64,000 nt of DNA, from NCBI GenBank assembly GCA_003427395.1, contig BFEA01000034.1, positions 1,269,927-1,333,926 of the forward strand. The letters run 5' to 3'. The translations under genes were made by a program, and so were the position numbers. The notes below the pieces were generated by a model, which saw only the letters and a list, made by a program, of their open reading frames with translations, was not told where the DNA came from and did not search any database. Shown in pieces: positions 37,005 to 38,332 of the stretch; position 1 is the stretch's first letter, and every line of letters begins with the position of its first letter. The DNA comes from Chara braunii (taxonomy: Eukaryota > Plantae > Charophyceae).

Positions 37005-38332
37005 GGCTGAATCCCTCAAAGTTGAGTGGGTTCAGTGCTATGTTTTATTTTTGTTTGTTCCGCTGAATGTATGACCTTTGAGGGTTTGGCCTATCCTAAG
37101 TTGGACGGTCCAACCACTTGTTTTCTCTTGGGGCTTAGGAACAGGAGGACGGGCACCCTAAGTTGGGAAGGCTCAAATTTCGGTTGTTTCTTTTAGGTTG
37201 CTGAAAACAGGACTGGGGATATTCAAAGTTGTGTAGACCCAGTTCTGTGTGTGTTTTCTTTTGAGGGGGACAACGGCATGATACTAGCCGTACCCCTAAG
37301 TTGAGGCGGCCTGGCCATAAGCTATGAACCTAAAGGGTAATCCAAAGTGTAAAAATTTATATATATATATATATATATCGTCAAATAGAATATATATGTA
37401 TATATTTTATATGCATGTGACAGACTGGCACCCTGTGTTGGGAGGTCCAGTCAATAAGTGAGGTATGAACAAAAAGAGAAGGAAAGCAAGTGAAGAATAT
37501 AATGTGAAGGTAACTTGGGCAGGTTGAACGTACCCCTAATTTGGGGCGGTCCAGTCTTATGCCCGTGATAACGTAAAAAGGTAGACAATTAGTATAAACC
37601 TTCTTTATTTTCCCTTCTAAACACAGGGCAGGGTTGGATGTCTCCCTAAGTTGGCTAGGTCTGACTATCTGCCTAAGAAGAAAGAAAGTTATAAAGTTTG
37701 TGCAAAGTATTTATGGTTGTTTGAACTGTTGTTACGAAGGCTAAGCGTACCCCTAAGTTGGGCGGCTTAGTCATACGTCATTTGTAACTTGTTTTAGGCA
37801 GATCTGGCGTACTCTTTAAGTTAGGGCAGTATGATCATATTGCCTTATGTTTCTTAAACTGTGTAGGCTTAACTAGGTGTAACCCTAAGTTGGGGCGGTC
37901 TAGCGATATGCCCTTTGTCGTTGATGTTATGTAGGTTGGCCGTACCCTTAAGTTAGGGTTGTCCGACCATTCGTCGTTTGTGTTTGTTTAGGCAGGTTAG
38001 GCATACCCCTAAGTTGGGGCAGTCCCATCCTATGCAGATTAGGCATACCCCTAAGTTGGGGCAGTCCAATCCTATGCCCTACGTAAACTCCGTTTAAGCC
38101 GGACTAGGCATACCCCTAAGTTGGGGCAGTCTAGTCTTATGCTTCATGTCGTCAGTAAGCAGAAGTCAGGCGTACCCCTACGTTGGGCCGGTCTGGTGAT
38201 ATGCTTTATGTTCACAGTTTATGTTGGGCTGGGCATACCCCTAAGTTGGGGCAGTATAGTTGTGCGTACTCTGTTTGTTTTGCTTAGGCAGTTCAGGCGT
38301 AACCCTAAGTTGGGGCGGTCTAATCCTATGCC
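37005..38332 (+). repeat. Array of ~18 conserved stem-loop units separated by variable T-rich spacers
   Basis: Consensus GGCAGGYTAGGC-RTA-CCCC-TAAGTT-GGGG-CR-GTCTARYC-TATGCC, with compensatory changes in both stems. Confidence 0.9.

Follow-up and report, generated by a model that had tools for sequence, protein, structure and literature searches.

RESULTS

Location and Surroundings of the Hairpin Array

The window, the whole 64-kb stretch of Chara braunii DNA that was analyzed, is a nest of Ty3/Gypsy fragments and contains at positions 36993-38336 of the plus strand an array of 18 hairpin units, all folding around a TAAGTT loop. The loops of units 1-9 start at 37018, 37097, 37159, 37225, 37297, 37434, 37537, 37647, and 37754, and those of units 10-18 start at 37817, 37886, 37949, 38010, 38052, 38117, 38179, 38242, and 38306. 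The count and coordinates, first proposed in an initial annotation of the bare sequence, are borne out by folding and by the distribution of the loop words, with 13 of the 27 TAAGTT words on the plus strand and 12 of the 13 YYAAGTTRG words in the window located inside 36900-38400 (2.3% of the window) compared with none of the 13 minus strand TAAGTT words. A covariance model built from the 18 units and scanned over the 64 kb recovers those 18 and one extra match, a similar single hairpin at 24648-24705 on the sense strand of a sister LTR (E 0.011). A candidate 19th unit at 37340 was dropped, being without the loop motif and having a folding energy of -3.6 kcal/mol.

Upstream of the array the sequence is low-copy up to ~36420 (summed contig depth of 6 to 52), the depth is 6,000-177,000 at 36420-36731, and many copies are present from ~36506. 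The start of the many-copy sequence (36506-36745, plus strand) is common to far more copies than the array and has the highest RNA depth. Within it the block 36628-36731, which is common to many families and surpasses the rest of the region by far in summed contig depth and also in RNA depth, forms several 5-bp hairpins with no excess folding (z -0.07). The post-array sequence (38337-39019, plus strand) is placed 3' of the array in other copies also, with overlapping contigs chaining 38228 to 38854 and so extending from the last unit to 38854, and no linkage is seen in other copies for 38855-40208. An assembly gap occupies 39020-39299, and the 64 bases preceding it recur after it, suggesting contiguity. 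The 3' end of an LTR follows at 40209-40943 (plus strand) and is homologous to the ends of three sister LTRs (E 1e-33 over 40209-40941), its terminus at 40943 reading TA where all three sisters read CA. The orientation of this end defines the plus strand as the sense strand of the LTR, matching the strand that the initial annotation took as sense for the element. CCGCACG is found directly after 40943 and no primer-site word occurs before 42197, so that the LTR is a 3' or solo LTR and not the 5' LTR of the gag-pol region at 42150-45635, and a link of the array's LTR to that region is not supported. A Gag-like frame at 43656-44225 has 38 relatives, all 38 being Chara braunii proteins. Between the LTR end and gag, a stretch of ~150 nt is repeated in two to three copies, 65% alike, at 40955-41315.

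The array had been described as lying inside a giant LTR. The 3' terminus of such an LTR is present at 40943, but an assembly gap separates it from the array and the 5' terminus was not found, as a search for TG with a matching target duplication in 32000-36700 gave only three loose candidates (32045, 35177, and 36187), a number expected by chance, with none near 36506 and with 35900-36400 being low-copy. A start directly after the purine tract at 38335-38345 was rejected, with no TG and no step in depth, and a resemblance of 36636-36750 to the 5' part of the sister LTRs, suggested by visual inspection, was likewise rejected, with a z of about 0. The distance from 36506 to 40943, minus the gap and the overlap, is 4.1 kb, near the 4.9 and 6.0 kb of the sisters, and the region 38409-38965 weakly aligns with sister LTR positions 560-1140 (z 2.3-3.2, the three targets being mutually related). 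It is quite probable that the array is inside the LTR ending at 40943, the other placement being the 3' untranslated part before the LTR.

The three sister LTRs are located on the minus strand at 56997-52122 (4.9 kb), 48223-45658 (2.6 kb), and 25303-19284 (6.0 kb) and have a common end motif. A primer site, TGGCGCCGTTGCC, is positioned directly after the end of the first, and 4-bp target duplications, ACGT and CCGT, are present at the sister flanks. The element at 45658-56997 (minus strand) is apparently non-autonomous, having a 4.9-kb 5' LTR, an Athila-type primer site, gag only, a deleted 2.6-kb 3' LTR, and the target duplication ACGT, and it is nested in another LTR that interrupts RT at ~45635. 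The 6.0-kb LTR at 19284-25303 (minus strand) is a solo LTR with the target duplication CCGT. The available text of the respective sources describes the TGGCGCCGTTGCC primer site for Athila (ATHILAfinder preprint, 10.64898/2026.03.20.713144) and a preference for a 4-bp NCGN target duplication for Phygy (PMC6317226), and the Chara sister element shares both features. The flanks of three LTRs all fit NCGN, which suggests CG-centred targeting like that reported for the moss Phygy elements (PMC6317226). Judged from the LTR ends together with the sister primer site and gag, the pol of the family being absent from the window, the array probably belongs to an Athila/Phygy-like Ty3/Gypsy family.

The 3' internal part of the gag-only element contains a second hairpin array (48921-49711, minus strand) of 19 units of ~25 nt, for which the sense strand gives the stronger folding (z -4.49 versus -2.45). 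Clusters of small GGCC-based palindromic repeats are present near the 5' end of sister LTRs at 47662-47771 and 56441-56526, again with stronger folding of the sense strand (z -3.77 versus -1.88). Elsewhere the window contains decayed large-subunit rRNA fragments, one partly duplicated (31457-32213), a broken hAT-like transposase region with a DUF659-type match (60262-63850, minus strand, P0031), and a tRNA-His gene (7333-7406) within the AT-rich region 7000-8000, possibly an organellar insertion.

Architecture of the Units and Spacers

Each unit is composed of a 6-nt TAAGTT loop closed by an inner stem of 3-4 bp, an RTA/CR internal loop, an outer stem of 8 bp, and a weaker basal stem in which 53% of the cells are paired. 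The sequence contains every one of the five outer stems given in the initial annotation, as well as its inner stems. The TAAGTT loop is intact in 13 of the 18 units, and the most conserved part of the unit is a sequence, RTACCCCTAAGTTGGGGC, this core being conserved more than the outer stems.

The loop-to-loop distance is 42-137 nt across the array and 61-69 nt in most of its 3' part, and neighboring outer stems are separated by spacers of 7-102 nt. The spacers had been characterized as 0 to ~105 nt long and U-rich, a description that fits the short spacers, which are mostly U-rich (27-52% T), but not the lower limit of the range or the four long spacers in the middle of the array, which have 18-37% T and are in part purine-rich. 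Homology at z > 3 is found in none of 55 pairs of core spacers, whereas the spacer ends are related to one another in 7 of 66 pairs. Within the array TRF reports only a 42-nt duplicate at 37992-38077, and the head-to-tail homology over the whole unit that characterizes a satellite or minisatellite is not observed, in agreement with the earlier view that the array is not a plain satellite.

Identity between units ranges from 30 to 95%. The 5' part of the array (36993-37464, plus strand) is a seven-unit stretch that includes the divergent units at 37018, 37159, 37225, and 37434 and the canonical-type units at 37097 and 37297, with a (TA)n tract at ~37346-37410. The four divergent units are 30-59% identical to the remaining units and still form strong hairpins of up to -22.9 kcal/mol. 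The 3' part (37861-38336, plus strand) contains the units that are most alike, includes the recent 42-nt duplicate, and varies in unit number in other copies. The description of the array as degenerate at the 5' end and uniform at the 3' end is correct for the 3' units, but there is no clean gradient, as unit 2 (37097) resembles the 3' units with 63-74% identity.

Pairing and Covariation in the Stems

The claim that the stems covary survives in part, as the outer stems diverge with pairing kept when analyzed by arm-swap and fixed-register tests, but the signal is weaker than hand-picked examples had indicated. In a plain MAFFT alignment the covariation score is equalled in 117 of 500 shuffles, which is not significant, and the share of paired cells in 17 of 500, and RNAalifold retains just three inner pairs. 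In a model-fitted alignment, which leans toward the structure, the corresponding values are 25 and 2 of 500. A register-free arm swap over the 18 units shows the left and right arms of a unit pairing better with each other than with swapped arms (p 0.003 on the plus strand), with the minus strand result as significant (p 0.0003-0.001) and the 5' eight units alone not significant (p 0.08).

In a fixed-register test of the 14 canonical units, which omits the units at 37018, 37159, 37225, and 37434, uses hand-chosen registers, and counts related units as independent observations, pairing is found in 95 of 112 outer-stem cells compared with a null of 89.1 (p 0.006; whole-arm swap, p 0.014), with the 16 outer-stem letters being only 58% identical between these units. 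With the letters of most other copies 101 of the 112 cells pair compared with a null of 93.5 (p 2e-4). The p-values overstate the number of independent events because the units are related by duplication. One outer-stem column has G-U in nine, A-U in three, and G-C in two of the 14 units when the letters of other copies are used (the window letters pair in 12 of 14) and can pair on the plus strand only. A second column has C-G in seven, U-A in six, and U-G in one. In 6 of the 14 units the purines on the left and right sides of the internal loop are both G, and in four both are A, a match that possibly forms a non-canonical pair; given the close relationship of the A/A units, it may reflect a single event. 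The evidence for pairing beyond chance is mixed, leaning toward yes, with moderate covariation. The unit is probably under selection, since the spacers have lost homology and the loop and the pairing have been kept.

Strand Preference and Transcription

The frequent G-U pairs had been taken to indicate folding of the plus strand RNA. The single G-U/A-U/G-C column supports this, but the overall ratio of G-T to A-C (29:9, p 0.002 against 1:1) has a p of only 0.05-0.06 when judged against the G+T-rich composition of the strand and a p of 0.5 when the one conserved column is left out. Folding z values of -3.26 versus -1.84 and of -2.92 versus -0.74 favor the plus strand, which is preferred in two of three parts and in 14 of the 18 individual units, with the minus strand folding better in four. 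In the full-length ensemble of the window copy, the loop-closing pair has a probability of at least 0.5 in only 6 of the 18 units.

RNA depth over the array is very low. In the stranded poly(A) run X5, of which ~6% was read, the first mate maps to the minus strand for all 15 reads on 36985-37700, and in run X7 five of five reads have the same orientation, which is plus strand RNA by the usual library convention. All of the X5 reads are <90% identical to the window copy and so come from other copies. Run X6 has both directions equal across the region and holds no strand information. These thin data support some low, sense-strand transcription of related copies, the absence of which would have counted against the initial annotation. 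Taken together, the one column, the better folding, and the few stranded reads are suggestive of a structure formed on the plus strand. Neither a G-quadruplex nor a tRNA-like head was found.

Other Copies of the Array

The array belongs to a many-copy repeat. Differences between the window and the majority letter of other copies were taken from two listings (40 of 42 rows in one and 40 of 732 in the other). All five listed loop differences change toward the common loop in the other copies, where the loop is restored for four of the five deviant units, and a double change at 37085/37113 places U-A in the window against C-G in other copies. Among the 30 listed arm differences, the other-copy letter stabilizes the hairpin in 18 and destabilizes it in nine (p 5e-5), with a mean effect of -1.49 kcal/mol compared with a null of +0.53, a single-site result that any decayed inverted repeat would give alike and that is equal on the minus strand. 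The window copy is thus a decayed member of a family whose hairpins were better.

The divergent 5' units are present as distinct sequences in other copies, which indicates that they are old fixed variants rather than debris. Contig joints that skip or repeat units occur mostly at 37900-38160, and a depth peak is located at 37876-38187; the joints indicate a variable unit number produced by ordinary tandem turnover, most recently in the 3' part. The polarised growth proposed for the array does not fit this pattern, in which units are gained and lost by tandem duplication and deletion.

Searches for Related Structures

A search of Rfam, including hammerhead and other ribozymes and miRNA precursors, gave no match in the array below an E of 6, with all scores far under the gathering scores, and the array therefore has no counterpart among the Rfam families. 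Pattern scans of viral contigs and, with the full unit, of metagenomes gave zero matches. A looser two-unit pattern identified 116 metagenome loci; 93 of them represent a REP-like palindrome of bacteria and the others are different repeats including CRISPR arrays. No alignment was obtained between any of these loci and either the window or retroelement proteins, the best model score was 20.3 bits among the 85 of 116 scanned, and the loci are regarded as unrelated. The palindrome of the 93 loci (L001 and L002 among them) is very common in gut and rumen-type metagenome contigs, and one further locus (L101, 1-1591) is a bacterial CRISPR array of 16 counted repeats with the same hairpin core. No loop-conserved, stem-covarying hairpin array in a charophyte LTR is described in the literature surveyed, a set without the Chara genome paper, which may cover these LTR families.

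DISCUSSION

Comparison with Known Elements

Giant LTRs, tandem arrays, and LTR palindromes are already known in plants, and structured export elements are known in animal retroelements; the comparisons that follow draw on the available text of the cited papers. The LTRs of the maize Sirevirus elements (Ty1/Copia) have ~7 palindromes each upstream of the TATA box, each palindrome being 17 nt long and near-perfect with the center least conserved (PMC4728375). The Chara array resembles these in consisting of repeated, symmetrical, hairpin-capable LTR motifs with conserved arms and variable number and sequence. It differs in having 18 three-tier hairpins with the loop most conserved and outer arms that covary with G-U pairs, and in being placed in a Gypsy-type LTR of a charophyte rather than in Copia; the variable center of a Copia/SIRE palindrome is absent, and the surrounding elements are Gypsy-type. 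The non-chromovirus Ty3/Gypsy elements (Athila, Tat/Ogre/Retand, and Phygy) have LTRs of up to ~5 kb and non-coding tandem arrays (PMC6317226; PMC11963269; 10.64898/2026.03.20.713144). These known arrays are head-to-tail sequence repeats located mostly between pol and the 3' LTR, unlike the Chara array in which the spacers have diverged beyond recognition and the structured unit is kept.

The LTR of the rice Retrosat2 element exceeds 3 kb and combines a short U3 with an R region of 2 kb that contains repeats (PMC3485330). This layout shows that a transcribed leader can include an array located 0.5-1.8 kb into a giant LTR, although the Retrosat2 repeats are simple CTTTTT without structured units. 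Structured cis-acting RNA export elements are represented by the IAP RTE and MusD MTE (PMC12786077) and by stem IIB of the HIV RRE (PMC4488727). Like the Chara units these are stem-loops with purine-containing internal loops, and theirs bind proteins for the export of full-length RNA, with several sites cooperating; they are single complex elements with known partners, whereas the Chara array is an 18-fold tandem array with a putative partner. According to the review, the export of RNA from plant LTR elements has yet to be studied directly (PMC12786077).

Proposed Role of the Array

The reading given the highest weight, with a probability of about one-half, is that of a multivalent protein-docking array on the sense RNA of the element, with a putative partner. 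The 18 tandem-grown units in a non-coding terminal region of a many-copy Ty3/Gypsy-type retrotransposon would likely offer a single RNA-binding protein a series of docking sites along that RNA. The candidate protein is most likely the family's own Gag or a host export or transport factor, with Gag the first candidate because the hairpin motif seems family-specific, one similar hairpin being present in a sister LTR and a different 19-unit array in the gag-only sister element. The units may have multiplied by slippage or template switching during reverse transcription, with selection presumably acting on the shape of the RNA. The protein is predicted to recognize the UAAGUU loop together with the internal loop and its purines, with the outer stem serving only to position them, and the large number of sites would add avidity when a very long RNA is packaged or exported. 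The window copy would be a decayed version of this arrangement.

The main competitor to a docking array on RNA, at odds clearly lower than those of the docking array, is that the units are palindromes acting at the DNA level. They would lie in the U3, the regulatory part of the LTR, and be recognized in double-stranded or cruciform form by a factor of transcription or chromatin, the RNA folding being a by-product. Conservation of the core sequence above that of the outer stems would be expected of such sites, as would the equal significance of the arm swap on both strands. The minus strand of the array also has nine sites with at most one mismatch from a telomere-type word, TTAGGGTTA, the window having 19 on both strands. 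The weak alignment of 38409-38965 would place the array upstream of the TATA-like region of the sisters, and the Sirevirus palindromes, as described in the available text, offer a precedent for LTR palindromes upstream of the TATA box (PMC4728375). However, a double-stranded site gives no reason for outer arms that covary or for the G-U/A-U/G-C column, the unit is asymmetric (RTA versus CR), the DNA hairpins of the units are weak (mean of -6.0 kcal/mol), and the collinearity with the sister LTRs is itself weak and involves three related targets.

Less probable again is an array with no function, in which tandem duplication multiplied a hairpin that arose by chance, and the stems were repeatedly repaired without selection as the template switched from arm to arm during copying. 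The covariation is not significant in a plain alignment, a few independent events could yield the observed pair types, the unit number varies freely, and tandem arrays are common in the non-coding parts of non-chromovirus elements as far as the available text of the sources goes (PMC6317226; PMC11963269). Against this, spacer homology is gone, yet 13 of 18 units retain the loop and other copies restore it for four of the five deviants, and repair of the arms would erase the G-U pairs and the asymmetric internal loop, yet both are kept.

The initial annotation also raised a processed small-RNA array, in which the hairpins are cut into Dicer-type or unit-length small RNAs that silence or guide, and this reading is improbable. 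The regular 61-69-nt spacing in most of the 3' part would suit such processing, but the stems total at most ~17 bp with two interruptions, which is short for Dicer. The spacers are of low complexity with no match shown elsewhere in the window, and no pile-up of read ends is seen over the array in the poly(A) libraries. A small-RNA role has been suggested for the Sirevirus palindromes in the available text (PMC4728375). A CRISPR-like memory array capturing foreign spacers at one end is very improbable, as the CCCC-TAAGTT-GGGG core shared with some prokaryotic CRISPR repeats (those of L101) is outweighed by unit identities of 30-95% that are not near-identical, by spacers of 7-102 nt with mutually related ends (7 of 66 pairs at z > 3), by the alignment of 0 of 116 metagenome loci with the window, and by a scan of 11 ORFs showing no nuclease and no Cas family.

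For a docking array on the sense RNA, the related families of the window allow a wider and more tentative proposal. A sister LTR has a similar single hairpin on its sense strand, and the sister gag-only element has a different, unrelated 19-unit array. It is possible, though less likely than not, that the giant-LTR families of stoneworts each carry their own three-tier RNA hairpin array with a fixed hexaloop and a purine-purine internal loop. Such an array would be a natural equivalent of the MS2-style tag arrays and would provide a multivalent address for the family's own Gag or for giant-cell transport, with different families of one genome using different hairpins to the same end.

The selection, export, and packaging of RNA by the plant LTR retrotransposons that encode it have received little study according to the available text of the review (PMC12786077). 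A motif with a fixed loop and many natural variants in one genome would provide a ready test of the RNA shape recognized by a Gag or export factor of the plant lineage. If the units are bound as DNA, the array would be a new example of LTR regulatory repeats, of modest interest. If the array is a row of docking sites on the sense RNA, it may represent a new RNA tag-protein pair and would offer a reason for the growth of these LTRs to 5-6 kb.
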